Under the pieces are notes generated by a model. That model made no database searches. It had not been told where the DNA came from and saw nothing but the letters and a program-made list of their open reading frames with translations. DNA of 64,000 bases from Mobula birostris (taxonomy: Eukaryota). Both the position numbers and the translations under genes were made by a program. The stretch lies in NCBI RefSeq assembly GCF_030028105.1, contig NC_092376.1, positions 53,306,935 through 53,370,934 of the forward strand, written 5' to 3'. How positions within the stretch are numbered: position 1 is the stretch's first letter; each line of letters starts with the position of its first letter. Shown piece by piece: positions 5,804 to 64,000 of this stretch.

Positions 5804-5922
5804 CTGTGTAATTGGTTTAAATAGTTCTTGAAAAAGCTGAGCCCTTTCCCTTTTGGCTGTTTCACCACTGCTTGCAGCAACTTCTGCCCAGAACTGAAAT
5901 TCATCACTGGGTTCGAGAATTC
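5804..5922 (-). CDS. DYNC2H1: DYNC2H1 coding exon 4 (119 nt)
   Basis: gaaag|(G)ILEPSDEFQFWAEVAASSGETAKRERAQLFQELFKPITQ|gtttgt; phase 1/0. Confidence 0.95.
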
Positions 5923-6159
5923 CTTTCAAAACATAAATGTTTGCATGGTATTAATGGTCACATTTCACATGGGTTAAATAGACTAGAAACTGACACTAGG
6001 CTAGAGACTTTTAGACCATATAATTTTAACCACAAATAAATGTGAATTCATTTTTTGTGACTATGATTTTGTTTCATATTAATCCTAAATTTGAATTCAC
6101 CAACACGTTGGGCTCTCCTACATTGGAAAACCAATTTGTGGTTCTTCCCTGCAGACATA

Positions 6160-7040
6160 AGACCAAAGGAGAGGGCATACAATATAGCAAAAATTAGTGG
6201 AAAGTGATTAAAAGTCAACAGAAGGCAAATGAAAATGTAACTAAGAAAGAAAAGATGAATTGTGAAAATAAGTTAGCCAATAATATAAGAGGACGCCAAA
6301 AGATTTTTCAGACATATAAAGAGTAAAAGAGAGACAAGAGTAGACATCAGACCACTGGAAAATGATGCTGGAGAGATAGTAATGGGGAACAAAAAAATAC
6401 CGATGAACTGAGTAAGTCTCTTACGTCAGTCTTTACTGTGTAAAACACACCTGCAGCATGCCAGAAATCGAGACTATCAAGGGGAAGAAGTGAGAAGAGT
6501 TGCTATGAATAAGGAGAAAGTGCTTGGGAAGTTGAAAGGTCTGAAGGTAGATAAGTCACCTTCATCCCAGGGTTCTGAAAAAGGTAGTTTATGAGATTGT
6601 GGAGCCATCAGTAGTGATTTTTCAAGTCTCACTCGATTGTGGAGGACTGAAAAATTGCAATTTCACTCCACTCTTTAAGACGGAAGGGAGCCAAGAGACG
6701 GAAAATTAAAGGCCAGTGGTTGGTAAAATGGTGTTAAGAATGAGGTTTTGGGGTACTTGGAGGTATACGATAGAATAGTCGAAGTCAGCATGGGTTCCTA
6801 AAGTGCAAATGTTTCCTGACAAGTCTGTTGGAATCCTTTAAGGATGTAATAAGCAGGATTGACAAAGGCAAGTCAGTGGATGTTATTTGCTTGCATTTCC
6901 AGAAGGCCTTTGACAAGGTGTCGCATATGAGGCTTCTAAACAAGGTAAGAGCCCACAGTATTACAGGAAAGATGGTAGCATGGCAGAAGATAGGTTGAAA
7001 GCAAAGAGTGGGAATAATTAATGATGTGGATGATGGAATC
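6160..7040 (+). mobile_element. CR1/L2-clade LINE fragment (continues 7850-8120, 10300-11100, 13885-13940)
   Basis: Decayed RT motifs (QHGFL, VDVICLHFQKAFDKVSH) interrupted by Penelope, L1 and RTE-X insertions. Confidence 0.75.
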
Positions 7041-7044
7041 AACG

Positions 7045-10295: not shown

Positions 10296-11100
10296 AGCAT
10301 TCACTTCAAGAGAATTAGAATATAAAAGCACTAATGTAATGCTGAGGCCACTGCTCTGACTGCATTTGGAGTACTAAGAGCAATTATGGGCCAAATATCT
10401 ATGAAAGGATTTATTTCTTTACCTTTATTTATTTAGAGATATAGCATGGAATAGGCCCCTCTGGTCCCTCAGGCATCACCACCCTGCAACCCCCAACAAC
10501 CCCAATTCAGCCCTAACCTAATCACTGGGCAATTTACAATGACCAATAAACCTACCTAATATGTCATTGAAGTGCGTAAGGAAACCAGAGAACCAGATAA
10601 GACCCGCACATTCCACGGGAAGGACATACAGAAACCTTACAAAGGATGCTGGGATTGAACTCTGAACTCTGCCACCCCAATCTGTAATAGCATCACCCTG
10701 ACCGCTATGCCAGCATGGGATCCACGTGATAGACTGGCATTTGAGAGGTCCCAGTGGAGGTTCACGAAAGTTATCCTGGGAATGAAAGGGTTAATGTCTG
10801 AGGAGCATTTGATGGCTCTGGGCCTATACTTGCTGTAACTTAGAAGAAATCTCATTGAAACCTACAGAATACTGAAATGTCTGGATAGAGTAGACATAGA
10901 GGGGATGTTTCCAGAAGTGGGAGACTCTGGGACCAAGTGGGACAGCCTTGGAATAGTACAACTTCCTCTTGAGAACAGAGATGAGGAGGAATTTCTGTAG
11001 CCGGAGGGTGGTGAATCTGTGGATTTCATTGATACAGATGGCCATGGAGGCCAAGTCATTGGCTATATTTGAAGTGAAGGTTAATAGGTTCTTCATTAGT

Positions 11101-13883
11101 CCATCCTGGGGATCCAAGAACACGGTCATGTACACCCTGACGAAGAGATAAGGTTCACAGAGGTAGAGGGGATGCACCTCATCACCTCGTCCGCAGGGAG
11201 AGAGCCGATGACGATGTCAGCACAAGGTGGAGTAGGGCTGATGTTGAACAGCAAGGCGAAGAAGGCACCGAGGGGTGTAGTCTCAGTTAGTGACAGAATC
11301 CTTACTGCAGAATTCGACGGAAACCCAGCGACCTCTGTCATCATCTGTTACTCCCCGCACAACTGCAGCGAGGAGAAGGAAGTGGAGGCCTTCTACAGTA
11401 AACTTCACGAAGCTGTCACTTCAATACTGGCACATAACTTCCTGGCCTTGCTCGGCAATCTTAATGCCCAGGTCAGACTAGAAGATGTTCCATACTCATA
11501 CCAAGACTTTACCAACAGAAATGGACAATATCTAGTTGATTTTATCCAGGAACACAGTCTCATTGCCGCCAACACACAATTCAAGTAGCGAGCTGGTAAA
11601 CTGTGGACATATGAAAACAGAACCTCCATCTACAGGAAACAGCTTGATTACATCCTCATAAGAACAAAATGGCGTAATTGTGTGATCGACACAGAAACCT
11701 ACAGCACCTTCAACTCAATCAGTTCTGACCACAGAGTAGTGTCAATGCAAGTGAGACTGAGCCTGCAGCAACCCAAAGCCACAGGTCCGAAGGAGAAGAT
11801 AGACTGGAAGGAATTCTCCTACAACCTATTCTTCAAGCCCAGTACACAGTGGAAGTGAGAAATCGCTTCGGCCCACTGGAAAGGGGGGAGGCAGGGAGGC
11901 TATCAACGGCTCATAGACGTGCACACAGATGCAACAAAGGGTTTGCCTTCTGTGAAGCGAACCAAGAAGAGTCGGATCTCAAAACATCCTGACGTCATCG
12001 CAGCAAGAAGTGTGGTCAATGCTTGTCATGCCGAACTTTGAAGGAGTGAAACAGAAGAGCTAAGAGACAAGTTCAAGACAGCAAAGAAGAATCTCTTTGC
12101 CACCTATGACCGACTGAAGAAAGAAGAACTAGCTGAGAGGATTAGAGAGATAGAAGCTGCTAATGAAGACATGCAGCATGGAGAAGCATGGCGCCTAGTC
12201 AATGAGATCCATAGACGGAAGTCTCCATCAGGTAAAATAAGTGGTAAAACAGCACAGGGCCGTGTCCTGACATGGTTTACCCACTTTAAGAACCTGCTGG
12301 GAAGCCCTCCAATGATCACAGAAGAAGAGGCGGACATACCCACTATACTAATGCAAGTCAACATCGATGACAGCCCATTCACCATTGAGGAACTGAAGAA
12401 GGCCAAATATGCACTCAAACGGGCTGGACCAGATGGGATACCACCAGATTTCCTGAAGAACTGCAACCTGGACGACATCTTGCTGGACATATGTAATACG
12501 GCACTGATGAAAGGCGACAAACTCTCAAACATTATCCCAGTCCCCAAGCCTGGATCCCTCACAAAGACAGATAACTACTGTGATATCAGCTTGACCTGCA
12601 TCTTAGCAAAGTTATACAATCGAATGATCTTGAACAGGATTCGCACTGCCATTGACCTTAAGCTAAGATTCAATCAGAATGGTTTTCCACAGAAGCGCAC
12701 AACAGCAATGCAAATACTTGCTCTCCATAGGATCATCGAGGAAGTCAAGAAGAACAACCTATCAGCCGTGATTACTTACATCGATTTTCGCAAAGCTTTT
12801 GACTCCATTCACCAAGGTAAAATGCTGAAGATCCTGAAAGCTTACAGAGTGCCAGACCATCTACTGAGAGCAATAGAGTCCAGCTATACCAAAACCATGG
12901 CGAAAGTTGTATCACCAGATGGAGAAACAGCAGTGTTTGAGCTCCTAGCTGGTGTGCTGCAAGGAGACACTCTGGCACCCTGAATCTTTATGATCGTCCT
13001 TGATTACGCTCTGTGTCAAGCTACCAAAGATCATGACAAGCTTGGTTTTACCATAAAACCAGGGTAAACCAAAAGGGTCAGACCAGTTACGCTCACAGAT
13101 CTCAATTTTGCAGACAACATAGTCCTGCTCTCTGACCAGATGGAGGATGCACAGCAGCTACTGACAAAAGTGGGAACTGAGTGCAATAAAGTTGGACTTC
13201 ACCTAAACACTAAAAAGACAGAGTACATGGCGTTTAACTGTGACGAAGGTACTCTCAAGACCATAGAGAATGATACCATTAAGAAAGACTTTGACTACAA
13301 GTACCTCAGGTCAAGAATGATGAGTTCAGAGAAGGACATAAAGATATGGAAGGCGCTGGTGTGAAAGGCTATGAACGACATGAAGAAAATCTGGAAGTCG
13401 AACCTGACCAGAGGGCTTAAAAAGAGGATTTTCATAGCAGTCATGGAGTCCATTCTCACGTATGGATGCGAGACGTGGACACTCACCAAGACGATGCTAA
13501 AGTCTCTAGATGGTTGCTATACATGAATGCTCCGGATGGCTCTTGACGTGAGTTGTCAACAGCACATGACGAACGTCAAGCTCTATAACAACCTACCGAT
13601 GCTCACCACTAAAATCGAGGCGAGAAGACTGCAACTAGTGGGGCACTTCTATGCCACCCTGAGCTACCTGCCAGCCTAGTCATCATATGGGAGCCCAAGC
13701 ACGGGAGAATGAACCCTGGGCGCCCTCCCAAGACAACGGTCAACACGCTCCTAGAAGACAGCGGTGCGGCTAATGTAGATGAACTGAACACACTGATGAG
13801 GGAGAGGGAGAAGTGGAGAGTTCGTCATCGTGCCTGATGCCGGCTCCCTAGGCCTGAGTCGATGTTGTAGTAGTAGTAGTAGT
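11101..13883 (+). mobile_element. RTE/RTE-X non-LTR retrotransposon, near full length, inactivated
   Basis: APE (GGVGLML...DRILTAEF...CYSPHN) and RT (IDFRKAFDSI, GVLQGDTLAP); (TAG)n tail; TSD attagt; splits a CR1 3' end. Confidence 0.85.
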
Positions 13884-15076
13884 GATTAGTAAGGACATCA
13901 AAAGTTACAAGAAGACAGGAGAATGGGGTTGAGTGGATGTTCCATCTGTCAGTAACACAGGGCTTCTGTGTCCTTCCAATGCATGGACTTAAACTTCCCA
14001 ATGCCATTCTCAACTCTCCATCTCTATGCTTATCCCACGAACAACACCTATTGCACCTTTTACAAGAATGTTTATTTTTTTACTTTTATGTAGAGATAGA
14101 GCGTGGAACAGGCCATTCTAGTCCAATGAGCCACACCACCCAGCAACCCACCTATTTAGCAATAGCCCACTCACAGGACAATTTACAATGACCAGTTAAC
14201 CTACATTTTTAAAGTACATCTTTGCACAGTGGGAGGAAACCAGGTTACCCAGAGGAACTACACATAGTCATGGGAGAACAGACAAACTACGTCATACAGT
14301 GCCAGAATTGAACTCTGAACTCTGGAATGCTCCAAGCAATAATAGCATCGCGCTAATCGCTAGGCTACTGTGGCATGCTGCCAGGACTAGAGGACTTAAG
14401 TTATTGGGAGAGGCTGAACAGTTGGTTTGTAGGAGAACAAGTGGCAACCTTAAAGAAGTGCACATACAATAATTATAAAAGTAAGATAAAGTGAATCCTA
14501 ACGAGTTTTTCCCCTGGATTAGAGATTCCAACACTAGTGTAGATAAGTTTAGGGTGAGAGGAAAATGAACTAAAATGGATCTGAGGGTCAATTTTTTCAT
14601 GAAGAGTGTGATCAGTATATGGAATGAGCTGCCAGAAAAAGTGACTGAGGCAGATGCAATAATATAATTTAAGCAGCACAGAGATAGGCACATGGAGGGA
14701 CGGGAAATGGAGAGATATGGGCTAAACAGTAGAAATTGGGACTAGGTGCATGGTCACCCAGGTCCTCATGGACTGGATGGGCTGAAGTGTCTGTATCCCT
14801 GCTGTATTGCTCTATGTCTCTAAATCACAAGGGAAATACACCTAACTAATTCAGTTAGCTAAGCTTAATCCATCCTGTGTGGATGAGATTAGAATTATAT
14901 ACAAGGAAATAGTCCAATTTCTATCCTGCTTAAATCAAGTTTTGAAACATTTAGAATATTAACAGCAATGATGTATATCTTAGTTCATGACACTAGAAAG
15001 ATCATAAATGAACTGGAAGGGAAAATAAGATGAAAAACTATTTAATTATAATGTACTCCAGCTTTAAATTTCAAAC

Positions 15077-15215
15077 CTGAAGTGTCCTCTTCCCCTCCAA
15101 ATCTTGTTCCATTGTGACTCTGATCTGAGTGCCTTACAATAGACCCCAAACCTGCTTCTAGTTGAGTCAACAAATTTTGAAGTTTAGGGTCAAAACTCTT
15201 ACTCCATTTCTCATC
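15077..15215 (-). CDS. DYNC2H1: DYNC2H1 coding exon 3 (139 nt)
   Basis: ttttag|DEKWSKSFDPKLQNLLTQLEAGLGSIVRHSDQSHNGTRFGGEEDTS(G)|gtttga; phase 0/1. Confidence 0.95.
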
Positions 15216-15904
15216 CTAAAAAGAAAAGCAGAAATTACATTAACCATATAAACTCTGCCATCAATTTGAAGTTCAAAACAAATATCATGTCCTAGCCATT
15301 CTCTCTCCTTTGGTTTTGTATTTCAAGTTCATTACAATTTAAAATCTATGATTTTGAGGCACGAATGATTATCAGATTCTCAACAAAATATTTAACCTAG
15401 GAGCACAACTTGTTTCAACGAGATGATGATAGTAGATTTTAAGATTGTTATTACTTCAGAAAATAGGGCCGAAAGTCAATATCCAAATAATTAGACTAGA
15501 TTAGATTAATATCATCCTAGTATCAAAAGGTAGCTTTCAGCTGATAACTGACACAACAGGGAAAATCTAAATTAAAAGCAAGCTTAACCTGCAACATAAA
15601 TAAGTTTAAATTACTTCAAAAACATGAATGCAATCAGTGTGATGCTGAATAATTAGCCATGCAATTTTCATATAAATATTAGGAGGGATTTAAATATTAC
15701 ACAACGTGGCAAAATTTCAGGTAATTTTGTAATATTCACAACAGCAGGACAATAGCAGATGATAAGATCCAGGAAAAATAGTAACATCTGGTTTAAATTT
15801 AACTATTATGTTCTGATTACTGAAGTGACCTTCAAACATTCTTCCTTTCTAAAAAAAAAGCAATCTATTTTTCTTCCTATAAATTATATGCTTTTAATTA
15901 AGTG

Positions 15905-16741
15905 CAATGGATTTTAATTAATTAGGGCACATCGGGACCAATTTTGGCCCAATTAAGCAGCTGCACAATTAGCCAAAGATTCATGGAAATAATGAAAAAG
16001 GCAAATAAAGAAAGACAAACTACCGTTTAAATGAGTAACAAATTGAGCATTTAAATAAAATACAAAATAAATCAGAAAACTACCAAAACTACTGTAGTAC
16101 TATAAAGCAGTGTATTAGTTCCTAATAGTTATCGAAGGAGAAATTCATCCAGTGTACACTGATGTGTTCTTTTGATTGACTGTAAATGACAATCAATGCA
16201 GACACCTAGTGCAGATAGCAGACTGCCTTCAAGCAGTGCTTTCAACGATGCATCCTCCAAATCTTTGTTATCACTGTAACATTCCAGATGATTGTTGAAG
16301 CTTTCAAATTCTTTGTAGTTCCTAACTCGTTGAAGTAGTAAAATCGTTTCATTTTCACTCCCAGCCATTTCTGGCATCTCCAAGCCTGAATGCTTAAAAC
16401 CACGTGAGCAAAACAGTTCTGAATTGTCTTATTTTTTTATTACTTGTCAACTATCAGTGACAATAAAACACTGTTCTTTGAATACAAACATGTAAGTTAT
16501 ACTACTTAAAAACTATTCCCTTTAAACATGGTGTATTGTCTAACCACCACACGATATGCACACAACTGATGCTAGTTAGATAATATTCAGCAACAGTCTC
16601 CTGTCCCAATTAAGAAGCATAATGTCCCAAATAAACAAAGGGAAACTGGCTATTTTCCTGATTTGCTTTTGCTCTTTAAGAGTTGTCCCAAATAAGCAGC
16701 TGACTTAAGTAACTGATAGCCCAATTATCCCGAATCCACTG
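15905..16741 (-). mobile_element. Non-autonomous Tigger derivative (same family) in a DYNC2H1 intron
   Basis: ORF 16129-16383 EMAGSENET...NNHLECY...LQSIKR...LDEFL matches the Tigger C-terminus; TIR ...cgaatccactg+TA. Confidence 0.85.
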
Positions 16742-16881
16742 TAATTGCGAAGTACATTTAATCGGGCACAGATAGACATAAAACTACAACAGCATAAACT
16801 TTCATAAAATATTTATCTTCTGAAAGTAAGGAACAGATAACAGATCAGTAAAGTTGTTTTTTGAAATGTTCACAAACTCAC

Positions 16882-17052
16882 CTTCAATAGCACTGGTGCA
16901 AATATTTGCCGTATTGCTTGATAAAAAGCACTTATGGGTGAACCCAGCATTGATGACACAAGTATATTTGTGTGCAAATTTTCTTCAGTAATAACATCTG
17001 GACGTATCTTAAAAAATACCAAAATTTTGTCCTTGATATCCCTCGATTGAAC
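16882..17052 (-). CDS. DYNC2H1: DYNC2H1 coding exon 2 (171 nt)
   Basis: ag|VQSRDIKDKILVFFKIRPDVITEENLHTNILVSSMLGSPISAFYQAIRQIFAPVLLK|gtgag; phase 0/0. Confidence 0.96.
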
Positions 17053-40302: not shown

Positions 40303-40360
40303 TATACAGATGTTGGTTGGGGGAAAGAAACAGGTTCATTTGAGGTTCCACAAGTTGTGA

Positions 40361-49668: not shown

Positions 49669-49672
49669 GTAA

Positions 49673-51710
49673 GATTTCCAGTTATTTGGGCCATCGGTTA
49701 ATATCTGGGACAATAACAAAATCTAATCGAGAAATTAGCTGCAACTCTCTTCGTTTATTTGGGCACTATAGCAATTAATTGGGACAGGAGACAGATTGCC
49801 GAACAGTTTCTAACTAGCATCGGTTGCATTCAATGGTGGCTGTTAAGACACTACACCGTGCTTAGAGCGAATAGTTTTTAAATAGCTTCAGTTGTGTGCC
49901 CTTGCGTTATCTAAATGGGCCGACGGACGCTGATTCAAAAAGCAGTGATTTTTGATCATTTTCTTTGTTTAATGTCTAAAAAATTTCAGACCCGTGCCAA
50001 GATGCCAAGAAAAGATTTGACCCTGGCCGAAAAAATTACGGTACTGGACCAGATTAAAAGCCATCCGCCTAACACCACTCATCGTCAGCTGGCAGTGATA
50101 ACTGGAGTGCCAAAATCTACAATTGCACGCTTGATACAACAGCAAGATAAACTGCGAGAAGAATGGGCATTATGTGAGGGACAGCAGGGAACATCCCAAA
50201 AACGAAAGCGTGAAGGTAAGAATCCAGATGTTGAAAAGGCCCTCAATCAATGGTTTTCCGTGGTAACCGGACGAGGTGTGAGAGTCAGTGGACCAATGTT
50301 AAAAAACAAATCAGAGGAGTTGGCTAAGAAGCTGGGCCACAGAGATTTTAAAGCAACAGATGGTTGGTTATCTCGCTGGAAGTGTAGGCATCACATTCAA
50401 TTCAAGAAAACACATGGAGAGAAAAGTGGTTCTGATGCTTTAAATGCAGAGGCATGGAAATCTACAAAACTGCCAGACTTGCTTCAAAAATTTTGTGCAG
50501 ATGATATCTACAATGCTGACGAAACGGGCCTTTTTTATCGTGCCATACTATCAGGTACAAAGAAAGCAATAGATCGCATAACGGTCTTGTGTTGTTCAAA
50601 TATGTCGGGGACTGATAAAAAGAAACTGTTGGTTATTGGAAAAAGTGTTAAGCCTCGGTGCTTTAAGGGGCTAAGAATGGATAGTTTACCAATCGAATAC
50701 TATGCTAATAAGAATGCGTGGATGACTTCTGACATTTTTAAGAATTGGCTGATGAGTTGGGATATGGAGCTACAGCGGAAATCAAGAAAAGTTCTTCTCC
50801 TTGTTGACAATTGTGCAGCATACCCTAATGTAGAATGTTTGAAAAACATTCAGCTGGAATTTCTGCCTGCCAGTAGAACATACTTGGTACAGCCAATGGA
50901 CATGGGGATCATAAAAAAATTAAAGACACTGTATCGCAGAAAGTTGGTTAACCACATTCTTGAAGCAATTGAAGAAAATCTACTGACATCTTCTGCAACA
51001 GCCAAGGAAGTGTGTGCAAGGGTTAACCTTTTACAGGCAATACAGTTTGTCACTGATAGTTGGCGAGAAATAAGCAGTAAAACAATTCAGAACTGTTTTG
51101 CTCTTTGCGGTTTCAAGCATTCAGGCTTTGAGATGACAGAAATGGCCGGGAGTGAAAATGAAACGATTTCAGTCCTTCAGGTTGGGAACTACGACGAATT
51201 TGAAGTTATCGACAATCATCTTGAATGTTACAATGAAAACGAAGATTTGGAGGATGCAATCGTTGAAAGCATTGTATCAATAAACCAAGGTGGGAAATAT
51301 GAAGATGAGGAAAGTGATCAAGATGACACATCTGAACCTGAGCTAGTGACTACACAGGATGCCAGGAAATTCATTGTTGGATTACAACGCTATTTCATGC
51401 AGGAAGGCAATGAAGGCAGTCCACTATCTGCACTAAGTGTCTGTGCTGATTTTGTTCATTTACAGTCAATCAAAAGAAAACGGCTGCGTACACTGGACGA
51501 ATTTCTCCGTCGATGACTATTAGGAACTAATACAGTTTTATTGTACTGTAGTAGTATTGCTAGTGTTCTAATTTGTTCTGTATTTCATTTAAATATATAA
51601 TTAGTTATTCAGTTAAACAGTCATTCGCCTTTTTTATACCTTTTTAACTATTTCCATGAAACCAGCTTAATTTGTCTAACTGTACTGCCCCAATTAACCA
51701 GAATCCACTA
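49673..51710 (+). mobile_element. Full-length Tigger element with damaged TIRs, copy 2
   Basis: Right TIR cccaattaaccagaatccacta then TA; left terminus deleted. Confidence 0.85.
50002..51516 (+). CDS. pogo/Tigger transposase-derived protein, copy 2, 504 aa
   Basis: Same domains; identical to copy 1 for about the first 940 nt; acceptor tttcag at 49989. Confidence 0.9.
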   Translation: MPRKDLTLAEKITVLDQIKSHPPNTTHRQLAVITGVPKSTIARLIQQQDKLREEWALCEGQQGTSQKRKREGKNPDVEKALNQWFSVVTGRGVRVSGPMLKNKSEELAKKLGHRDFKATDGWLSRWKCRHHIQFKKTHGEKSGSDALNAEAWKSTKLPDLLQKFCADDIYNADETGLFYRAILSGTKKAIDRITVLCCSNMSGTDKKKLLVIGKSVKPRCFKGLRMDSLPIEYYANKNAWMTSDIFKNWLMSWDMELQRKSRKVLLLVDNCAAYPNVECLKNIQLEFLPASRTYLVQPMDMGIIKKLKTLYRRKLVNHILEAIEENLLTSSATAKEVCARVNLLQAIQFVTDSWREISSKTIQNCFALCGFKHSGFEMTEMAGSENETISVLQVGNYDEFEVIDNHLECYNENEDLEDAIVESIVSINQGGKYEDEESDQDDTSEPELVTTQDARKFIVGLQRYFMQEGNEGSPLSALSVCADFVHLQSIKRKRLRTLDEFLRR

Positions 51711-52182
51711 TATTGCCATTTTAATAGTTTGCCCCCTGACTTAATTAGGTCAATAATTGTTTATGGTTGAACACATTATAACAGAATATTCATTTACTAC
51801 ATTTTATAATTAGGAATGTTTCATTTTCTAGTGGTCTGCACAATTTTTGAATGGGTGAGGGTTATTTCCTGAATACAGCTAAAAAAAAAACAAGAAGCTT
51901 AGCTACGATAACTGATGTCATAAATCTGTACTTGTACTACGTTAAACTTTTCAAATTTACTGCTGTAAGGCACAGGGCATAAATGCTATGAACATTAGCT
52001 TTTTTGCAGCAGCAGCAGCAGCACCGTACAAGTAATAGTTATATTGTAAAGGAAGGTTCCAGGTAATTCTGAGGTTTGTAATGAACCAGTTAATATTGGC
52101 AGATATATTACTTGTGATCTATTATTGTACTGTGCTGAAGCAAATTGAGTTCCCAGTTCTGCCTGCACATCCATTGGGTATA

Positions 52183-52955
52183 CAGTGAATTTCAATTAAT
52201 CAGGTCATTGTTTAATCTGGCCAGCCACTTATTTGGGACAGCTCTTAAAGAACATTAACTAATCAAGAAAATAGCCAGGATTCCCTTTGTTTATTTGAGA
52301 TAGTATGCTGCTTAATTAACCCAGGAGACTGTTGATGAACAGTTTCCAATTAGCATCAGTCATGTGCACTTGTGTGGCCGTTAGACACTACACTGTGCTG
52401 AGAGCAAACAATTTTGAAATAGCTTCAGTTGCATGTATTTGTGTTCAAAAAGCAATGTTCTTTTGTCACTGGTAGTTGAAAACAAATAAGCAATAAGACA
52501 ATTCAGAACTGTTAAGCTCACTGCAAGTATTCAGGCTTGGAGATACCAAAAATAGCCCAGTGAAAATGAAACAATTAGAAACTATGAAGAATTTTGAAGG
52601 TATCGACAATCATCTTGAATGTTTCAATTAAAATGAAGATTTGGAAGATGTAATCATCAAAAGCACTGTTTAAAAGCAGTCCACTATCTGCACTAGGTGC
52701 CTGCATTCATTTTGTTCATTTATAGTCAATCAAAGAACATCAGTGAACACTGAATGAACTCCTCCGTTGATAACTATTAGCAACTAATACAGTTTTATAG
52801 TTCTCTAATAGTCTTGTTACTGTTCTAATTTATTCTGTATTCTATTTAAATACATAATTTGTTGCTTTTTAAACTATTTCCATAAAACTTTGGCTAATTG
52901 CAGCAGCTGCTTAATTGGACCAAAACGTACTTGTCCTGATGTGATGAGTGCACTG
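52183..52955 (+). mobile_element. Non-autonomous Tigger derivative at the site orthologous to 39536-40302
   Basis: TA+cagtg...cactg+TA; same right flank as the 40302 copy; empty site at 61817-61820. Confidence 0.85.
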
Positions 52956-52994
52956 TATATGGATGCTGTTTGGAAAAAAGATTCATTTGAGGTT

Positions 52995-53056
52995 CTCTTT
53001 TACTTGTTTCACCACTGCTTACAGCAACTTCTGCCCATCACTGAGTTGGAGAATTC
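52995..53056 (-). pseudogene. Second truncated duplicate of DYNC2H1 coding exon 4 with an internal deletion
   Basis: tgtttcaccactgcttacagcaacttctgccca...gagaattcctttcaaaacataaat aligns to ~5845-5940. Confidence 0.85.
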
Positions 53057-54649
53057 CTTTCAAAACATAAATAAAATGTTTGTATTGTATTATTGTTCAC
53101 ATTTCATGTGCTAAATGGAATAGAAATTAACACGATAGATATTTTCAGACTATATTGTTTTAATGAAAAAAACATATGAATCACTATTCATGAACATTTT
53201 TTTTATATTAATATATACTGTAGTAATATATTCTATATTTGAATTCACATTCAAAGTAAATTTATTATGGAAGTACATATGTCACTATAGATATGTTTTC
53301 TTGCAGGCATACTCAGTAAATACAAGAACCATAATAGAATCAATGAACAGGGTCCACAGGGTGGACAAACAACCAACATGCAAAGACAACAAATTGCAAA
53401 TACAAAAGAAAAACTGCTACTACTACTAATAGTAATAATAATAATAAGTAAATAAACAACAAATATTAAGAACATGAGATGAAGAGATTGAACTCTGAAC
53501 TCAGACGCCCTGAGCTTTGATAGTCTCGTGCTAACCGCTATGCTATCATGGTGCCCCATTTTGTATGCTTCAGTGAAATAAGCTCCAATTCTTCTCAACT
53601 CTAGAGAGAAGGCTGTATGCTTATTCTCCTCATAGGACTGAGTATCCCCCCTCAGTACTCAGAATCAATCTGGTGATCTTTCTCTGCACTGAGATAGTCT
53701 TCTAATGTAGGGAAAACTAGGCCTACACAAGTTATCCACTTTTCTGGTTTTTAAGTCAAGCCCTACTTATACGGAAGTGACATATTCCCCCGCCTCCACA
53801 CAATGTCAGACCTGGACTCATGCTTGTTCATGTATGGATTTAGAAAAGTCAAAATTTCTGACAAGACATAAGTATAAGGTTTGGTAAATAACAAAGAAAC
53901 TGAACACTATCTTACGAAGACTAATAGAATTTAGCAAAATGGAGAGAGAAGTGGTAGTTGTGTTTAAAGTGGATAACTAGTGAAATAATACATTCTGGCG
54001 ATAAAAGAACAAAAGAAAATACACCAAAGTGAAAGCCAAAAACATATAAGAACAAGATCCCTAGAATTCCAGACTCAAGAATAGGAATAATTGAGTTCAA
54101 TATTAGATCAGTTACAATGAATTAGGCAACCCACACAGATACTTGGATTAGGTTTCACCATAACAAAATGTAACCTTGTACTGACAGAGTGACCAGAGAG
54201 TGGATTCAATTAGATGATAAAGGCAGGGAACTGTGGCTCAGTATGAACAAGCATGGACAAACAAAGAGCTTGCAGTTTTACAGTCTTTCATAATTCAGGA
54301 TATCCTAAAGTACCCAAATGAAGTACTGTGGCAACTTAGGAAATACAGTGAATTTTATGGCTCATATCAACCTGTAAACAACCGATAAATAGTTTTAGTA
54401 CTAACAGCAATGCAATAAGCATCAGCTAGATCTCCAGGAAATAATTGTCTGAAAGAACTTCTATATCTGAGAGAATCAAGTGTTTGATATTTCTTATGAA
54501 AAATTAATAAATTCACTTCCATGAGTAATGTATGGCAGCGACATCCTAGATTTATTTCTGTGCTGAAAAGTCTACAACTTATCTAATCAATTTATAAATC
54601 AAAGTTAAGAGTACTACGAAATGAGCCATAGAAAACAAACTCCTTCATT

Positions 54650-55460
54650 TAGAACCAGAATCAAGTTTATTATCACCAGCATGTGTCGTGAAATTTGTTA
54701 ACTTAGCAGCAGTTGTTCAATGCAATACATAGTATAGAAGAAAAAAATAATAAATTACTGTATATGCAAATTGAATAAATTAGAAATTGTGCAAAAACAG
54801 AAATAATACACGTTAAAAAAAAGTGAGAGAGCGTTCATGGGATCAATGTCCATTTAGGAATCGGATGGCAGAGGGGAAGAAGTTGTTCCTGAATCACTGA
54901 GTGTGTGCCTTCAGGATTCTGTACTTCCTACCTGTTGGTAACAGTGAGAAAAGGGCATACTCTGGGTGCTGGGGGTCCCTAATAATGGACACTGCCTTGC
55001 TGAGACACCGCTCCTTGAAGATGTCCTGGGTACTTTGTAGACTAGTACCCAAGATGGAGCCGACTAAATTTACGACTCTCTGCAGCTTCCTTCAGTCCTG
55101 TGTAGAAGTCTCCCCCGCCCCATACCAGACACTGATGCAGCCTGTCAGAATACACTCCACAGTACATCTATAGAGGTTTTTGTTGACACACCAAATCTCT
55201 TCAAACTCCTAATGAAGTATAGCCACCATCTTGCCTTCCTTATAGCTGCATCGATAAGTTGGGATCAGATTAGGTCCAGAGATCTTGACAGCCAGGATCT
55301 TGAAACTGCTCACTCTCTCCACTTCTGATCCTTCTATGAGGATTGGTATGTGTTCCTTCGTCTTGCCCTTCCTAAAGTCCACAATCAGCTCTTTCATCTT
55401 ACTGACATCGAGCTCAAGGTTGTTGCTGTGACACCACTAGTTGGTATATCTCACTTCTGC
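54650..55460 (-). mobile_element. Rex1/Babar-like LINE 3' fragment
   Basis: KELIVDFRKG...IEGSEVERVSSFK. Confidence 0.7.
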
Positions 55461-56387
55461 TACAGTAAAAGAGACAACAGAGTTGATGGGGCAAGATAAT
55501 TTCTTCTGACTGAAATCAATCTCAAGCCATTATCAATGCATAAATATCACCAAAAACGTGATGAGAAATAAGATCATAAGACAGAGGAGAATTAAGCCAT
55601 ATTGCCCAACAAGCCTGCTCCGCCATTCAATCATGGCTGATTTTATTCCCTTTCAACACCATTCTCCTGTCTTCTCCCTTTATGCTTTGCCATCCTTACT
55701 AATCAGGAACATAGCAACCTCAGCTTTAAATATACCCAATGACTTGGCCTCCACAGCCATCTATAGCAATGAATTCCATAGATTCACCAGCTTCTGGCTA
55801 ATGAAATTTCATCTCATCTCTGTTCGAAAGAGACATCCTGTTATACAGAGGCTGTTCACACCTATCCAAGACTCTCCCTCTACTAGAAACATCCTCTCCA
55901 CGTCTACTCTATCCAGGCCTCTCAATATTTGGTAGGTTTCAATGAGACTGTCCTTGTCCTAAACCCAGATCCATCAAATGCTCCTCATATGTTAACCTTT
56001 TCAGCCTCAAGATCATTCTCATAAACCTCCTCTGGACCTTCTCCAATGCCAGCACATACTTTCATGGATTAAGGAGCCCAAAAACTGCTCAAAAAATTCC
56101 ACATGTAACCTTATGAAGATTTATCATTACATCCATGCTTCTATATTCTAGTCATTTCAAAAAGAATGCGAACATTGCATTTGCTTTGCTTACTACCAAC
56201 TCAGCCTGCAAGTTAACCTTCAGGGAGTCCTGCATGAGGACTCTCAAGTCCCTTTGTACCTCCACAGCACTCAATAGAACAGCCCATCACATTTCCCTAG
56301 GAGAAAGGATCTCATTGTACCAGTGGGCAGTGGGTGAAGCTTCCTTTGGCTCAGTTCAAGTTTTAATTGTCACTCACCATATACATA

Positions 56388-57988
56388 CAGTGATATGCAA
56401 AATTTTGGGCACCCCGGTCAAAATTTCTGTTACTGTGAATAGCTAAGCCTGTAAAAAATGAACTGATTTCTAAAAGACATAAGGTTAAAGATGACACATT
56501 TCTTTAATATTTTAAGCAAGAAAACTTTTTTATTTCCATCCTTTGCAGTTTCAAAATAACAAAAAAGGAAAAGGGCCTGAAGTAAAAGTTTGGGCACCTT
56601 GCATGGCAGTACTTAGTAAAACCCACTTTGGCAAGTATCACAGCTTGTAAATGCTTTTTGTAGCCAGCTAAGAGTCTTTCAATTCTTGTCTGGGGGATTT
56701 TCACCCATTCTTCCCTGCAAAAGGCTTCTAGTTCTGTGAGATTCTTGGGCCGTCTTGCACGCACTGCTCTTTTGAGGTCTATCCACAGATTCTCGAAGAT
56801 GTTTAGGTCAGGGGACTGTGAGGGCCATGGCAAAAACTTCAGCTTGCGCCTCTTGAGGTAGTCCATTGTGGATTTTGAGGTGTGTTTAGGATCATTATCC
56901 AGTTGTAGAAGCCATCCTCTTTCCATCTTCGGCTTTTTTACAGACAGTGTGATGTTTGCTTCCAGAATTTGCTGGTATTTAATTGAATTCATTCTTCTCT
57001 CTACCAGTAAATGTTCCCCGTGCCACTGGCTGCAACACAAGCCCAAAGCATGATTGATCCGCCCCTGTGCTTAACAGTTGGAGAGGGGTTCTTTTCATGA
57101 AATTCTGCACCCTTTTTTCTCCAAACTTTGCTTATTGCAGCCAAAAAGTTCTATTCAAAAGGTTCAGAGCAACATCTAAACAAGCCTGATGCATTTTGGA
57201 AACAAGTCCTGTGGACTGATGAAGTTAAAGTAGAAATTTTTGGCCGCAATGAGCAAAGGTATATTTGGAGAAAAAAGGGTGCAGAATTTCATGAAAAGAA
57301 CCTCTCACAGGAGTGGATCGATCATGCTTTGAGCTTGTGTTGCAGCCAGTGGCACGGGGAACATTTACTGGTAGAGGGAAGAATGAATTCAATTAAATAC
57401 CAGCAAATTCTGGAAGCCAACATCACACTGTCAGTAAAAAAGCCGAAGATGGAAAGAGGATGGCTTCTACAACAGGATAATGATCCTAAACACACCTCAA
57501 AATCCACAATGGACTACCACAAGAGGCGCAAGCTGAAGTTTTTGCCATGGCCCTCACAGTCCCCTGACGTAATCATCTTTGAGAATCTGTGGATAGACCT
57601 CAAAAGAGCAGTGCATGCAAGACGGCCCAAGTATCTCACAGAACTAGAAGCCTTTTGCAGGGAAAAATGGGCGAAAATCCCCCAAACAAGAATTAAAAGA
57701 CTCTTAGCTGGCTACAAAAAGCATCTACAAGCTGTGATACTTGCCAAAGTGGGTGTTACTAAGTACTGCCATGCAGGGTGCCCAAACTTTTGCTTCTGGC
57801 CCTTTTCCTGTTTTGTTATTTTGAAACTGCAAAGGATGGAAATAAAAATGTTTTCTTGCTTAAAATAGTAAAGAAATGTGTCATCTTTAACTTTATGCCT
57901 TTTGGGAATCAGTTCATCTTTTACTCACTTAGCTATTCACAGCAACAGAAATTTTGACCAGGGGTGCCCAAACTTTTGCATGCCACTG
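56388..57988. mobile_element. Tc1 (DD34E, IR/DR type) element rearranged into a palindrome
   Basis: TA+CAGTG...CACTG+TA; two inverted copies of the transposase C-terminal half (56504-57046 minus, 57128-57868 plus; WTDE, QDNDPKH, SPD....ENLW). Confidence 0.92.
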
Positions 57989-59228
57989 TATATATAGCGA
58001 TACATGAAATAGCATTGCTCCTGGGCCAAGTGCAAAATACAGTACATAATTCACACACAATACACATAGTAATAATAGTACATACAGTCACAAAAATATT
58101 AGCACGTCCCTGAGTGCATTGGCCTTAAGATTGATTATGCATGTGATGCTGTCCTGCAGCGATATTTCAGTGTCACATCAGTTCTTCATCTTGTGCCGTA
58201 AATCCAGCTTGCCTTCCAGGGAGCGAAGACTGCAGAGTAATACAAGCGGAAAAGTCATCCTGTAGGGGACCAGGCCCCAACCCAGCACAGATTTTCCCTG
58301 TAGAAGTGGGATGCAGAGGATTCGTTGCTACATCTATGACCAGGACCAGTCTATTGAAGAAGATGGGGGTGAGGGGTCACTCCCTCCAACAAGCTGTCAA
58401 ATGCAGCAGAAGAAAGCAGCAATTGGATTTGGATTAAAAGGAAAGACAACAACTGGGCTGCAAGATGAAGACAGGAGGGTATGGAACTGAGGGGGGTGTA
58501 TCTGGGACGCCAGGTAGCACCGTTGAGCCCTCTGGAGATGTCGTGGGCTTATCAACGAAACGTCAAAGGAGGGTGCCCACCTGATGACCCCGATGACGTA
58601 CCTACCCTCCCTCCTTGTCACCACTCCAAACCCACTGCCAACATCGAGAGTGCCAATTTACCATAGGGATTGAAACATCAAGTCCTAGTAGCTCTACTCT
58701 ACTTTCCCACAGCGCCTCCATCGCTGGATATCTGTAACAGGCACGAGGTCCTGTTCGCACAGGAACCAAAGCCATGCAGCTTCCTTGCAGTCGGTCTCCC
58801 CAACACACCCGATTTACAGTGTTTTAGATAACCACTGTCCAAAAAGACCTTGCGACCACAAGGAAAATATTTAAGACCCACGTCTAGCACAGACAAAATG
58901 CTGGAGGAACTCAGCAGGCCTGACAGCGTGTATGGAGAAGGGTTTCCAGCCGAGACTATTCAACAGCCCTGACATCGACTATTATCTCATTTTCACAGGT
59001 GCTGCCTGACCTGCTGAGCTCCTCCAGCATTTTGTGTGTGCTAGACGTGTGTCTTAAATATTTTTCTTTTGGTCGCAAGGCCTTTTTGGACAGTGGTAAT
59101 CTAAAACACTGTAAAGTTCCAACATCTGCAGATGTTCTCTTGTTCGTGATAAGACGCACATTTGCCTCAGGTGTTGGACCCAGAGAGGCAGCTGCGACCA
59201 AGCGCGCTACCATCTTACCGGACTTGTC

Positions 59229-60800
59229 CCGCCGTTTTCAACACGCTCCGCGTCCCCACGGGGCAAATCTCCGCACTACCGCGTTATGGGTGGTAACTAA
59301 CTGCAGAGCTCGCCGAACTGGGAGGCAGGAGCTGGCGGGCCGGGCGATCAGCTCAAGCCCGCCCGGTTGGCAACAAACAGCGTCCACAGTTACCCCACAC
59401 GGCAACGGCCCAGCAGAGCGGAAGTGACGCATCGCCGAGAAAGGGAACGTCATTGCGCCGTGGCTTAAAGCGGTAAACCACCATCTCCCGCCTAGACAAT
59501 ACCACAGAAAGCTGGCACAAGCGCGGGGCGGCGCTGTCCCCTTTAAGGAATTCGCCGGGTTGTTAGGTGGACGCCCTCGCACAAGTTGCACCGCCTCTGG
59601 AAGGACCGCGGGGCAGAAGCGGGGCGCGATGAACGGCGATGACTCGCAGTCGCTCTGAGGGGCACCGCCACTGACGGGAGTGCTGCAGCTGTTGGTCAGC
59701 GCGTGTGGTGACGGTCAGATGTACAGAATAATATTGCTCTGGGCTCCAACTCTGCTCCTGTGGCGAAACCTGCGCTTGGCGGCGGCATCCCAGATGGGGA
59801 AATGTCTTCCCCTTGGGCAGTGATTTGTTTGCAGGGGGGTGACAATTACCAGCGGCCGCTCTCTGCTGCCGTGGGTTATTTCAGTCTACAGGGTCAATGC
59901 AGCCTATGTCAGGCCTGCCACTCAATGCGCTTGTCTCAGCAGCGCCCCGGTTGCAACCCTCGCTCCCCCTACAGTGCGCGCTGTCGGGCAGTGGCTGCGC
60001 CGACCTTGTCCCTCAGCCCCGGAAGTGATCGCAGTGTCGTTGTTGGAGTCGCCGAGACCGAACTGTAGAGGCAACGCGGGGAGCGGATAAACGCCGCGTG
60101 TTCCCGGCTGCCCGGAGCGGCGGGGTGACAGGTGCAGCCGCGCTCTGATCCTCCACGACCCGTCCGCATTCCGCGCCGGCTCCCTTCTATACGTGCGATG
60201 TGTAAAGGGGGAGGGCGGGCGTCGGCTCCCGGGTCCGGCCCGGATGTCCCCTCAGGGCTGATGATTCTTCTCCTCCCGAGGCGGCGGGTTCCGACAGCAG
60301 AGCGTCTGCTTCGGAGCCTCTTCATGTCGTCTTCCTGCCCGGCGCGGGCCAGCCCGCCCTCTCCCTCGGTGACCGGCTTGTCTCCTACTGAGTGCTGCTT
60401 ATGGGGGAGGGGGTGGTGAGAGGGAGGGGTGTATCCGCTGCGCGAAAGGGCGATTTCTTTGTCAGACCCGATCCCAAATCCCCGAAACCCACACAATTTC
60501 CTGCCCGGTAGTAGAGGCGCCCGGTGGCCTTTCGGAAGTTGGTGTCGAGAGGTGGCTGGTGTGTGTTGCACAGCGCAGTAATCGTTAAGACCTTCAATTA
60601 GTCATCCTGTAAACGACGCAAAGAGAAATTTTATTGTAACTTTGTTTTTTGACCTGAATCTAGGTCGTTCACTCAGTCAAGGAAGGCCCCACCGAACGTA
60701 ATTAGCATTTCTTCTGAACGGCTTCCCCTCTAAATTGCACAGTAATTGCGAGGCATTGGAGCGGATGCTGCCTGTCAAAGCTCCGTTCTGGCGGCAGCTC
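59229..60800. promoter_or_regulatory. CpG-island promoter, copy 3
   Basis: 59257-59459 matches 34851-35054 including the ETS-CRE and X-box-like motifs; ~59677-60142 matches ~35192-35657. Confidence 0.8.
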
Positions 60801-61276
60801 CTTCTGGTGGGATCGAGGGCCTTTACCAATACAATTGCGCAGTTAGTCACCATCTTTGAAGAGACGTCAAGAGTTAATCATAAGATTTAATAGTATTTTG
60901 GGGTTTGCTTGTTAAGCTTTTAGAGAATTTATTTCTGGTTGATTTCTACCTTTTTATTTGTCGCCTAGGCCAGTTGGAAAACATTGGCCTAAAGGTCAGT
61001 GAAAGAGTTGTAATTTCAAAAGCAGTCAAATTAACCATCGCATTTTTCGTGGACCTATTTAAGATGCCATTAGCATTGTCTGTTATTTTTGTTATGTCCA
61101 GTCTGCTTCTGGTTCATGATTTGTTCTGCAGCGTTCAGAACGAAAACGTAACATTCCAGAGGTTTTTTTAATGCACTCTTTATTTCAGTTAAACGTGCAG
61201 ATGGTGTTTTGTCCTTGTAGTTAGGGATTTGTACACAAAACCGTGTTTAACACTCTCGTTGTAATTTTTTTTCTAG

Positions 61277-61330
61277 TGAGACTGACTCATACTGGCAGAC
61301 TATCCGATATCTCGAACGTTCAATCGACTG
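61277..61330 (+). other. Small internal exon, copy 3 (54 nt); host gene unidentified, probably continues right of the window
   Basis: tttttctag|TGAGACTGACTCATAC...GACTG|gtaagt, followed by an empty Tigger target site. Confidence 0.7.
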
Positions 61331-64000
61331 GTAAGTGTTGGAATATTGCCATCTTTAATCTCTTGCTCTCCGACTTAATTAGGTTAACGGTTGTTTATGG
61401 TTGAAAATATTATAACAGAATACATCTAATACATCTTGCAACTAGAAACCTTTCCTTTTTTAGCGGCCTGCACAATCTTTGAATGGGTATGGTTTGCTTC
61501 CTGAATGGTACTAATACAATGAAACTAGAAACTTTGCTACAGTGAGATGTAGAAATCAAATATCTGTTGTCATAAATCTGTCCCTGTATTGCATTATTTT
61601 TTCAGGTTCATCAATTTCAAATTATACCTATGAATACTTTGAAAATTACCTTTTTGTAGCAGCAGCACACTACATTGTAATTAATATTTGTATAGTAGTG
61701 GAAAAGCACAATTTTGTAGTGAACCAGTTAATCTTGGCAAATACATATTTTGCATTCTATCATTTTACTGTGCTGCAGGCAACAGCGTTCCCAGTTCTGC
61801 CTACCCATCCATTGGGTATAAATGCTGGCTGGAAAAAAAACAGGTTCATTTGAGGTTTCATTTGAAGTAACCATGATTAGGAAGTTTGTCATGCAGCTTT
61901 CGTATTGTTCCAAAGCTATTTTGCTGAAATATTATACATGAAACATGACACCTACTTGGGCAGGTCACAAAAAGTTAATCAAATCAGTGGCTTTAAGACT
62001 CTTATCTAAATGGTCAGAGAGCTGGTAAGTTTTGGAAAAGGAATCTTAGCAGTGGCCTATGACTTAGTGATTAAAATCAGCATGTACATGAGGCCAGAAT
62101 TACAAGACTGGAACTGTCCCAGTGTTTGAAAGCTGTAGGAGGTTATAGAGATTGCAAGTGGAAGGGTTTTCAAGGGGTTTGAAAACATGAATGCGAATAT
62201 TAAGGTCAAATAATTGCTGAACTGGAGGTCCAAATAGGTCATTGACCATCAAGGTAATAGTTTGATGGGGAGGAAAAAATTAGGATACAAACAAGTAGGT
62301 TGTATTATGCTTGTTTACAGGAAGTTGTGTGCAGATATCCAGAAGAGGGTGTAATAATTGAATCAAGATAACAAAGGCTGGGATGAGGGCATCTGCATCA
62401 GATCAGCTGTGGATAGATTTGAGAAACAAGAAATCAAGGAGGTAAAACTACTTTGCATTTGTAATGGAAAGTTGGCAATTATTGAGTAGAACATTTTTTA
62501 TAATTTAGAAATATAGGGGAAGCTGCTTCTTTAGCTGACTGTCAAATTTCAGTTAATTACAGAGGATAAATAACATTCGTACCATATTTGCAGTAGGTAA
62601 TTGCTAGCTTCAACAGAAAAGCCAACAACCTGACCTACCAACACTATCAGGATCCTTAGAGTTATAAGTAACCTTAGAGTTATAAGTAACCAGCACAATG
62701 TCTAGGTGACATAGGGTAGTTTAACTGACATCTCAAAATATCTTCGTCATGTAAACTATCTAAGTTGTCATGGTATTATCTGTATATATTTGTAGTAGCA
62801 CTTAAAGCACAAGATCAGAGACCATTTCACTCATTTTGTCTTTGTCTTTCTTCCCTCTCTTCACTCCTAATGTACTACAGCCCAATGTAATGGAACTACC
62901 TACAAGATGCACTGCTCCCACCCCCTCTTAATTGCATATTTAGACAACATCCCAAGTTCAGTACTCAAATAAAACCTGCCATTGTCTCCTCTGGACACAA
63001 GGGCAATCCCAATAGCAACTAGAGAGCAGGGTAAAACAAAATATGATGACATTACAGCTATTTGCACACATCAAGAATTGAGTTTGAATGCAAAAGTCTG
63101 TGAAGTCCATATCTTTCCCAAACTCTCTCCCATAGCTTGCACAACTGAGCTTTATTGGAACACAGAAATATTTCATCTCAGAAACAGCATACGTGGAGGT
63201 TTGTGGCCTGCTCAGTGCAATCCATGCTGCGACCTGCAGGTGGTCAGACCATTGTATGCACTTTGTAATGTGTATTCTGATTGCTTCTAGAAGAGCTACG
63301 ATCCCTGAGATTCCAGTATTATGGATTTCAAAGGGTAGCATAATTTGCTTTGAGAATAAAAATGGAAAGATTTTAACCCTTTTTGTGTTTTGCATAAAAA
63401 TGCTCATGAATGGACCATTGCAATGTGAATAAATTCAGATGTATAAATGCAGAGCAAGACTTAACACATGCTTTCTAGCCTGCATTATCAAGTTCCTTTC
63501 TGTGCAACTCTTTGAGGTGCAGAGTTTGCTTCTCAGTTAGCAGATGGACCAAAATTATGAAATTTACCATTAAAACGCAGTGAGTAATAACTACTAAGTA
63601 CTGAGTGAGGCATAAAGGCTGTAAAGTCTGAAGGAACTTGAAACCTATCAGTAGTTGGCCTGAAAGGAGTTTGCTGCGCTCAAAACTAAAGATGTCTTGA
63701 CTAAGTGAAGAGGAGAGTCTTGTGGCATCCAAATACAGTCTAGCTGTATCCAAGTGCATGTGCAACTAGAGACTAGTGAAATAAACTAAAAAAAGCTGGG
63801 GGTTGGAAAATAAAAATGGCCTTTGAAGGGAACCTTTCATGACATTTAAGAAAAGTATCTGAATCTGAACTTTTACGGTGATGTGCATTGAACACTTCTG
63901 TTGTAAAATGGAAAATATTAGATCTCAATTGGAATACAAGAATTTAATTCCCACTTGTTGTTGCAAAGGAAATGGCGAGATCTAGGCAGGAACGCAAGGG

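Follow-up and report, generated by a model that had tools for sequence, protein, structure and literature searches.

Where does a new gene find a promoter when both sides of the nearest bidirectional promoter are already occupied? The question is raised by a stretch of 64,000 nucleotides from Mobula birostris (contig NC_092376.1, 53,306,935 to 53,370,934; hereafter the window, in whose coordinates all positions are given). It holds the 5' end of DYNC2H1 on the minus strand, the first exons of DCUN1D5 on the plus strand and, between them, two open reading frames (ORFs) for Tigger (pogo) transposases. We take DYNC2H1 and DCUN1D5 to be arranged head-to-head in human. Here we argue, with good confidence, that their promoter region was built up in two rounds into a three-copy repeat, that a Tigger element was domesticated by way of a spare DCUN1D5 promoter and its 5' untranslated region (5'UTR) exons, and that gene conversion has homogenised the result.

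Results

The promoter region is present in three tandem copies

The DYNC2H1/DCUN1D5 promoter region is present in three old tandem copies (Table 1). Comparing the window with itself, we find same-strand collinear blocks at 5845-40347 (copy 1), 40361-52994 (copy 2) and 52993-61857 (copy 3). A 17-mer motif from a DCUN1D5 intron occurs exactly at 40331-40347 and 61841-61857 and with 15/17 matching positions at 52978-52994. Both inner motif sites are joined to DYNC2H1 coding exon 4 at the same position, 5845, the first across 13 nt of filler (40348-40360) and the second without filler. Sequencing reads were compared with 34600-40700; run X2 is a DNA run, possibly from the assembly's own sample, and runs X1, X7 and X9 are RNA by guess (below, presumed RNA runs). 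An X2 contig covers junction 1 (40281-40700) with zero differences.

A preliminary description of this DNA had reported the motif fused to mid-exon 4 at 40347-40361 and at 52994, with unique DNA after 61857, and had proposed that a unit running from mid-exon 4 across the promoter into the partner's intron was duplicated. The sequence, together with the X2 contig at junction 1, bears out the former, and the latter holds in that both junctions join DCUN1D5 intron to exon 4. The description had also spoken of a triplication. Three copies there are, but the junction copies have small indels in common relative to exon 4 and its intron and therefore go back to one ancestral junction, so that we read two successive events with one inherited junction rather than a single triplication.

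Are the copies more than dispersed repeats? When repeats are masked on the basis of 390 kb of flanking sequence, 37% of the window is covered, some shared blocks included, and for blocks that lie within dispersed repeats (for example 40687-41554 and 55558-56264) the evidence is one of position alone. The preliminary description had named dispersed repeats as what would overturn it; this is true of some blocks, whereas the single-copy blocks match the window only. Unmasked collinear blocks are present in copies 2 and 3 in addition to masked ones. With matches counted over the whole 4.0 Gb assembly, 33400-34930 matches inside the window only, apart from a repeat tail of 54-75 nt, and the promoter core (35200-35700) has three matches, all in the window. 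Unmasked collinear blocks and window-only matches therefore argue that the copies are neither dispersed repeats nor a false duplication.

The copies are mosaics of about 80% and 100% identity, and neutral DNA between them is 15-21% diverged. Copies 2 and 3 are incomplete versions of the unit, with large gaps: copy 2 jumps from the equivalent of 7017 to that of 29149, with the breakpoint between 41525 and 42100, and copy 3 skips the equivalents of 6083-27561 and of 28713-34716. Collinear, gapped intron, promoter and first plus-strand exons had been claimed for both copies; single-copy blocks support this, but DYNC2H1 coding exons 1-3 are absent there.

DYNC2H1 remains with copy 1 and DCUN1D5 with copy 3

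Exon 4 of DYNC2H1 matches human DYNC2H1 in PDB (E 4e-5), in agreement with tblastn using the Callorhinchus protein. Exons 1-4 each match the genome once, and decayed exon-4 halves alone recur (40439-40362 and near 53043). DYNC2H1 has remained with copy 1, as had been suggested; its coding exons 1-3 are found only there. An exon-1-like peptide near 47670 was dropped, because tblastn places exon 1 at 26819 only.

On the minus face of promoter copy 1, a GTAGGT donor follows 34823 and is intact in this copy only, and the likeness between 34823-35058 and 59228-59463 ends at this probable donor. Read depth in the presumed RNA runs, present at 34804-35007 and zero at 34600-34803, hints faintly at a leader exon. 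DYNC2H1 thus likely has a leader exon at promoter 1, predicted to splice to 26829. The minus face of copy 2 is mostly deleted and carries a high-copy repeat at 47908-48036. The orphan minus face of copy 3 (59228-59463) may serve as a partner in conversion, or an unannotated transcript may begin there.

On the plus strand, the partner gene is identified by its sequence matches as DCUN1D5, with coding exons to the right of the window, from the equivalent of 67661 (ATG) to 86669. A genome search with PF03556 returned one match, on another contig, and missed the gene beside the window; DCUN1D5 was found by tblastn with that sole match as query, 150 representatives serving as further queries. Residues 17-35 of skate DCUN1D5 isoform P0287 match 61279-61332, in copy 3 only, and the isoform continues into the first coding exon. 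As this isoform reads through the copy-3 version of exon u2, u2 counts as an ancestral exon and copy 3 as the original DCUN1D5 partner. The earlier proposal that the head-to-head partner stayed with copy 3 is thereby supported by the exon at 61277-61330.

Two Tigger ORFs have likely become genes

Judged by their sequences, ORFs 1 and 2 are domesticated genes under purifying selection. Their Tigger membership is evident from a single ORF of about 500 aa with HTH_Tnp_Tc5 and DDE_1, a DD30D spacing (D269-D300), TA sites and remnants of terminal inverted repeats (TIRs); the traits used in the main texts of PMC9219625 and PMC7386202 include DD29-36D, TA duplication and short TIRs. Both copies have lost part of the 5' TIR and carry an altered base at the 3' terminus. 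A strict search, whose count is a lower bound, gave 116 other genome matches, none with an intact full-length ORF: stops interrupt 109 of them and the other 7 are fragments no longer than 161 aa, the best match reaching 81% over 161 aa. An active transposon should have intact TIRs at both ends and young dispersed copies; the two window elements lack the former, and the matches from this search include none of the latter.

Taking the majority base of 20 dead copies from higher-scoring loci as reference, the window ORFs have a synonymous divergence (dS) of 0.25, a non-synonymous divergence (dN) of 0.055, a dN/dS of 0.22 and no stops, whereas each dead copy has 2-11 stops and a dN/dS in the range 0.49-1.07. 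Under simulated neutral decay (three simulations of 2000) the frame stays open in 0-0.15% of cases. A 90% cluster unites six sequences from three genomes: both types occur here and in Hypanus sabinus, and Mobula hypostoma contributes the 504-aa type; the orthologues in these two rays are 95-98% identical at the protein level. Among the 120 matches listed, the nearest relatives beyond rays (61-67%) come from scorpion, bee, spider, bichir and liver fluke, and there is no skate or shark protein (7995 candidates scored), which is weak evidence of absence. The company of scorpion, bee, spider, bichir and fluke relatives suggests horizontal entry of this Tigger family into rays.

How are these ORFs expressed? 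They likely use the copied DCUN1D5 promoter and first exons, and the earlier suggestion that spare promoter faces were left for the Tigger ORF to occupy agrees with their position in copies 1 and 2, behind exons u1 and u2 on the plus strand. The copy-1 element starts 12 nt past the u2 donor, and a splice acceptor lies 12 nt ahead of each ORF's ATG. A GT..AG joint from 35646 to 36741, linking u1 to u2, is seen in all three presumed RNA runs, from two organisms, and in 0/1 DNA runs. In addition, Hypanus gene model P0124 translates u1, u2 and the ORF as one protein chain. Contig depths, which we do not use as measures of expression or copy number, are higher over the ORF than over introns in the presumed RNA runs, and 24 over the three-copy core versus about 10-12 elsewhere in the DNA run.

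An in-frame ATG in u1 (35440-35646) gives Hypanus isoform P0124 an N-terminal extension of 82 residues; that frame contains a stop here, and the extension is not conserved.

A predicted DNA-binding protein with a shortened loop

The catalytic triad (D173, D269, D300) is kept. After position 181, 11 residues that 66 of the 69 measurable relatives possess are missing from all five ray proteins (19 of 88 relatives were unmeasurable). The ray proteins also have Y274, where 87/88 relatives have H, and replace N291 (found in 77/86 relatives), T292 (82/86) and S294 (71/86). Around the deletion, where the ORFs have a stretch of 60 nt, 16 of 20 dead copies have 87-107 nt; the deletion therefore arose in the domesticated line.

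An AlphaFold model (predicted local distance difference test score 78.5, predicted template modelling score 0.63) places the deletion between strands 169-180 and 191-200. Foldseek matches it to Mos1 (E 4.9e-6, template modelling score 0.23-0.33), which supports a mariner-type fold only and is silent on active-site function. A clamp loop at that position helps to assemble the paired-end complex (PMC4820933), and the model suggests that the 11 lost residues are likely part of this putative loop. On this basis we predict a protein that binds DNA and probably does not cut it. Its likeliest binding target may be the TIRs of its own Tigger family, a suggestion that we make from sequence and only tentatively.

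Copies are homogenised in tracts

Concerted evolution of parts of the copies is a point absent from the preliminary description. Copies 1 and 2 are identical over 932 bp (35279-36210, of which 564 bp are intronic) and again over 948 bp within the ORF (37377-38324), and all three copies agree over 359 bp (35299-35657). Copies 1 and 3 share an exact run of 148 bp inside a block of 96% identity that extends to the probable DYNC2H1 donor. By simple arithmetic, the chance of a 932-bp exact run at 16% background divergence is about 1e-70. The X2 read contigs break off precisely at the two points where the copies diverge, 35657 and 36210, so that the tracts are real in the reads.

Comparing the proteins of this genome with those of Hypanus, we find 12 sites that group the paralogues by species, 6 that group them by paralogue, none that cross and 10 others, and the six paralogue-grouping sites all fall in one patch (393-429). 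This pattern argues that the pair is older than the species split and has been homogenised separately in each. A further organism, B, differs at 11 or more positions in 35654-36184 and at 6 or more ORF positions where window copies 1 and 2 agree; homogenisation here is therefore later than that split. Near-identical tracts flanked by old divergence, with non-coding and synonymous sites included, and paralogues that group by species are hallmarks of gene conversion, and non-allelic gene conversion has likely prevented the promoter core, exon u1 and most of the ORF from diverging.

In a patch at 38554-38680 (codons 391-432) the paralogues differ across species, by a one-codon indel and five residues, and both sides of it are homogenised. 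Such a patch could reflect selection in favour of two protein variants, or else an obstacle to conversion.

Probable order of events

At the two positions where copies 1 and 2 each contain a Tigger element, copy 3 retains an empty TA site. Distances, computed at non-CpG sites in unconverted DNA, are 0.153 (middle, n=2169) and 0.162 (right arm, n=840) between copies 1 and 2 from 42100 rightwards, and 0.207 (n=928) between their left arms, left of 41525; copy 3 lies at 0.190 (n=2265) from copy 1 and at 0.191 (n=820) from copy 2. Empty sites and distances together therefore suggest a duplication, then Tigger insertion, then a second duplication with its breakpoint at 41525-42100. We regard this order as likely. 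That there were two rounds is well supported, and an early second round followed by long conversion would fit equally.

Weighing the alternatives

Several findings weigh against our account as a whole. The sides of the u1-u2 joint are only 21-28 nt long and the joint is not assignable to one copy; the u2-ORF joint is absent among the 15 of 923 joints listed, from runs that are RNA by guess only. With the triad intact, loss of catalysis remains a prediction. As to timing, the second Tigger-like element has a distance of 0.206 (n=632), as old as round 1; the left arms of copies 2 and 3 stand at 0.219 +/- 0.031 (n=178), where a simple late unequal crossover predicts about 0.155; and in a three-way count of left-arm sites the class in which copies 2 and 3 agree is the smallest (11 versus 26 and 20). 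Imagine instead that both duplications were early and close together, with the Tiggers inserted between them, and that some 10 kb of copies 1 and 2, the part at 29149-39524, were later made alike by conversion or exchange. This would account for all distances (about 0.21 for left arms and second element, 0.155 for middle and right arm, 0.19 to copy 3) and for the small copy 2/copy 3 class. However, it requires an additional, very long event, rate variation among short blocks (n 178-660) could yield the same spread, and the distance changes at the very place of the 41525-42100 jump, as would be expected of a single breakpoint. We consider such a history rather unlikely, albeit one to be reckoned with, and retain the order of duplication, insertion and second duplication.

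Might the ORFs, on the other hand, still be selfish or merely lucky, transcribed from a CpG island, their frames preserved by conversion between copies, and serving no function in the host? The intact DDD triad would fit, conversion between two copies can remove a stop in one, and outside relatives in scorpion, bee, bichir and fluke are what a horizontally spread, active family would leave. Yet conversion does not lower dN/dS relative to the ancestral element, and this ratio is 0.22 in the window ORFs against 0.49-1.07 in the dead copies. Moreover, both TIRs are damaged, only two intact copies were found in the genome, and the proteins are closely conserved in Hypanus sabinus and Mobula hypostoma. 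We therefore hold a selfish or chance origin to be very improbable beside domestication. Less credible still is that copies and identical tracts stem from mis-assembly, polishing or common repeats. Several shared blocks do lie in the masked part of the window, cross-polishing would give perfect tracts, and X2 is perhaps the assembly's own sample. Against this, the flanks of the tracts are 15-21% diverged, single-copy blocks match only in the window, X2 contigs break precisely at two tract ends while another covers junction 1, and Hypanus has both paralogues with the same mosaic. An artefact hardly seems conceivable on these grounds, and we proceed from real tandem copies.

Table 1. Features of the window, in order of position.
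Feature	Position	Strand	Remarks
DYNC2H1 coding exon 5	580-723	-	tblastn; gene extends left of the window
DYNC2H1 coding exon 4	5804-5923	-	intact; duplication breakpoint at 5845 within
DYNC2H1 coding exon 3	15072-15215	-	tblastn; single copy
DYNC2H1 coding exon 2	16882-17052	-	tblastn; single copy
DYNC2H1 coding exon 1	26619-26829	-	ATG at 26819, AG acceptor 10 nt upstream; single copy
Promoter copy 1, minus face	34823-35058	-	likely DYNC2H1 5'UTR exon; 96% identical to 59228-59463
Exon u1, copy 1	35199-35646	+	DCUN1D5-derived 5'UTR exon in CpG island, start approximate; CpG observed/expected 0.85-1.05
Exon u2, copy 1	36741-36793	+	53 nt
Tigger/pogo element, copy 1	36806-39094	+	5' TIR truncated; 3' end CACTA instead of CACTG; TA at 39095-39096
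Transposase ORF 1	37384-38901	+	505 aa; acceptor at 37372; HTH_Tnp_Tc5 and DDE_1 (Pfam)
Second Tigger-like element, copy 1	39547-40302	+	dead, internally deleted; also in copy 2, absent from copy 3
Junction 1	40331-40439		motif, 13-nt filler, decayed exon-4 remnant 40361-40439
Copy 2 left arm	40361-41525		equivalent to 5845-7017; 21% diverged from copy 1
Copy 2 middle	42100-47914		equivalent to 29149-34924; 16.5% diverged from copy 1
Promoter and exon u1, copy 2	48151-49082	+	donor after 48518
Exon u2, copy 2	49617-49668	+	52 nt
Transposase ORF 2	50002-51516	+	504 aa (50002-51513 = P0123); acceptor 49990; element end 51710, TA 51711-51712
Second Tigger-like element, copy 2	52183-52955	+	TA at both sides
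Junction 2	52978-53212		exon-4 remnant and start of intron 3 (copy 3 left arm)
Single-copy block	53560-54094		equivalent to 27561-28089; copy 3 only
Orphan minus face, copy 3	59228-59463	-	96% identical to likely DYNC2H1 UTR exon; donor lost
Promoter core and exon u1, copy 3 (DCUN1D5 first exon)	59671-60142	+	donor after 60131
DCUN1D5 exon u2, copy 3	61277-61330	+	54 nt; coding exons beyond the window
Empty TA target of the domesticated Tigger	61344-61345		copy 3
Empty TA target of the second Tigger-like element	61817-61820		copy 3
Original right end of the duplicated unit	61841-61857		continues into unique DCUN1D5 intron

Other repeats in the window

Further repeats lie outside this story or inside one copy. 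DYNC2H1 intron 1 holds a likely PIF/Harbinger-type element (21894-24498) with a DDE_Tnp_4 frame on the minus strand (23806-24498), a GC-rich array of 21-nt tandem repeats (22785-23009) and a 135-aa plus-strand frame that we take to be Myb/SANT-like. In intron 2, an inverted, internally deleted member of the domesticated ORFs' Tigger family (15904-16743) is dispersed and stands outside the triplication. A young Tc1-like insertion (DDE_3) with two similar halves sits inside copy 3 (56386-57994) and is 91-93% identical to a copy about 65 kb to the left of the window. A dispersed repeat at 2176-3845 has a decayed transposase-like frame (2556-3077) without Pfam match, and a long interspersed nuclear element (LINE) at 11100-12983 has an RVT_1 frame (12042-12983).

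Discussion

A proposed history

How might these pieces fit together? We propose that a tandem duplication ran from exon 4 (5845) to DCUN1D5 intron 2 (equivalent to 61857); its junction is seen, and we infer that it came first. It would have left both genes whole, each with its own promoter copy plus a spare face leading nowhere. Two Tiggers would then have entered the copy on the DYNC2H1 side, at TA sites of its spare DCUN1D5 intron; copy 3 shows these sites empty. The acceptor 12 nt before the transposase ATG would make the ORF a terminal exon, the u2-ORF splice being predicted from the splice sites and the Hypanus model. A second duplication or unequal exchange presumably copied promoter, Tigger gene and junction to give copy 2. 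Purifying selection on the ORF, as computed above, would have accompanied loss of the element ends and of the 11 likely clamp-loop residues, and the predicted role is non-catalytic DNA binding, for which the termini of the numerous dead Tigger copies are the most plausible target. Finally, non-allelic gene conversion is the probable mechanism behind the observed identity of promoter core, u1 and most of the ORF, and would have remained active after the split from a related species.

Comparison with known systems

Among domesticated transposon genes there is an enrichment for bidirectional CpG promoters; the Tigger case is TIGD1-EIF4E2, described by Kalitsis and Saffery (2009, PMC2777200). As there, a Tigger transposase has become a host gene that faces a housekeeping gene head-to-head across a CpG island, with the DDE/D core kept and the terminal repeat lost, and the gene structure resembles route (iii) of the same text, in which a new gene has an upstream exon and a spliced intron. 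At TIGD1-EIF4E2, however, the free antisense side was used, whereas here both sides were taken and duplication gave a spare sense face with 5'UTR exons. Unlike TIGD1-EIF4E2, the new gene here was also duplicated again and evolves in concert; the main text of PMC2777200 does not contain the term "gene conversion".

Pogo transposases have been domesticated repeatedly in vertebrates (Gao et al. 2020, PMC7386202, main text). Like TIGD1-7, JRK, JRKL, CENPB, POGK and POGZ as described there, the ray genes retain a whole transposase (HTH_Tnp_Tc5 and DDE_1), have a low ratio of non-synonymous to synonymous change (Ka/Ks) and are stationary. Unlike these pogo-derived genes, they stem from their own TA insertion, and the sequences closest to them are dead copies within this genome, together with scorpion, bee and bichir transposases. 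We rejected orthology to mammalian TIGD4 or TIGD6 on account of the separate insertion, the empty copy-3 site and the dead family in this genome, rather than on a tree including human TIGD proteins; the database names "TIGD4-like" and "TIGD6-like" for the ray ORFs are similarity labels.

In CSB-PGBD3 and SETMAR, an intronic transposon has been captured as a terminal exon through an acceptor before its ORF. The ray genes share this mode of capture but, where those are fused to host coding exons, use only 5'UTR exons of a spare copy and leave DCUN1D5 intact. In Leptodactylus, tandem ATP1A1 duplicates reportedly evolve in concert by interlocus gene conversion, and there as here the paralogues are said to group by species save for a short paralogue-specific patch. 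In contrast to ATP1A1, the tracts here include the promoter core and first exon of unrelated genes, and a likely DYNC2H1 UTR exon with its orphan copy. In the open-licence literature we found no paper on this locus; the supplementary species tables of PMC7386202 may bear on novelty. Relative to the texts compared, each single ingredient is known, and the combination, with its route through a copied promoter, is new.

Implications

One reading goes further, and we offer it as speculation that is more probably wrong than right: promoter duplication with lasting conversion may yoke together DCUN1D5, two ray-specific transposase genes and DYNC2H1, with silencing or co-option of the Tigger family throughout the ray genome by a dosage-doubled binder of its own kin that has a truncated clamp loop. 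If this were true, one regulatory mutation would spread among several genes sharing the converted promoter and first exon, and the orphan minus face of copy 3 would be a template for the DYNC2H1 leader exon.

Be that as it may, the locus preserves a near-complete record of the route from transposase to gene: both breakpoints, the empty sites and the donor exons can be read, dead relatives provide a neutral control, and other rays have orthologues. In databases this ray-specific pogo domestication goes only by the label TIGD4/6-like, and the conversion tracts at the locus extend over the promoter and first exon of unrelated genes. To the question of where a promoter comes from when both sides of a bidirectional one are occupied, it gives one likely answer: the promoter was copied.

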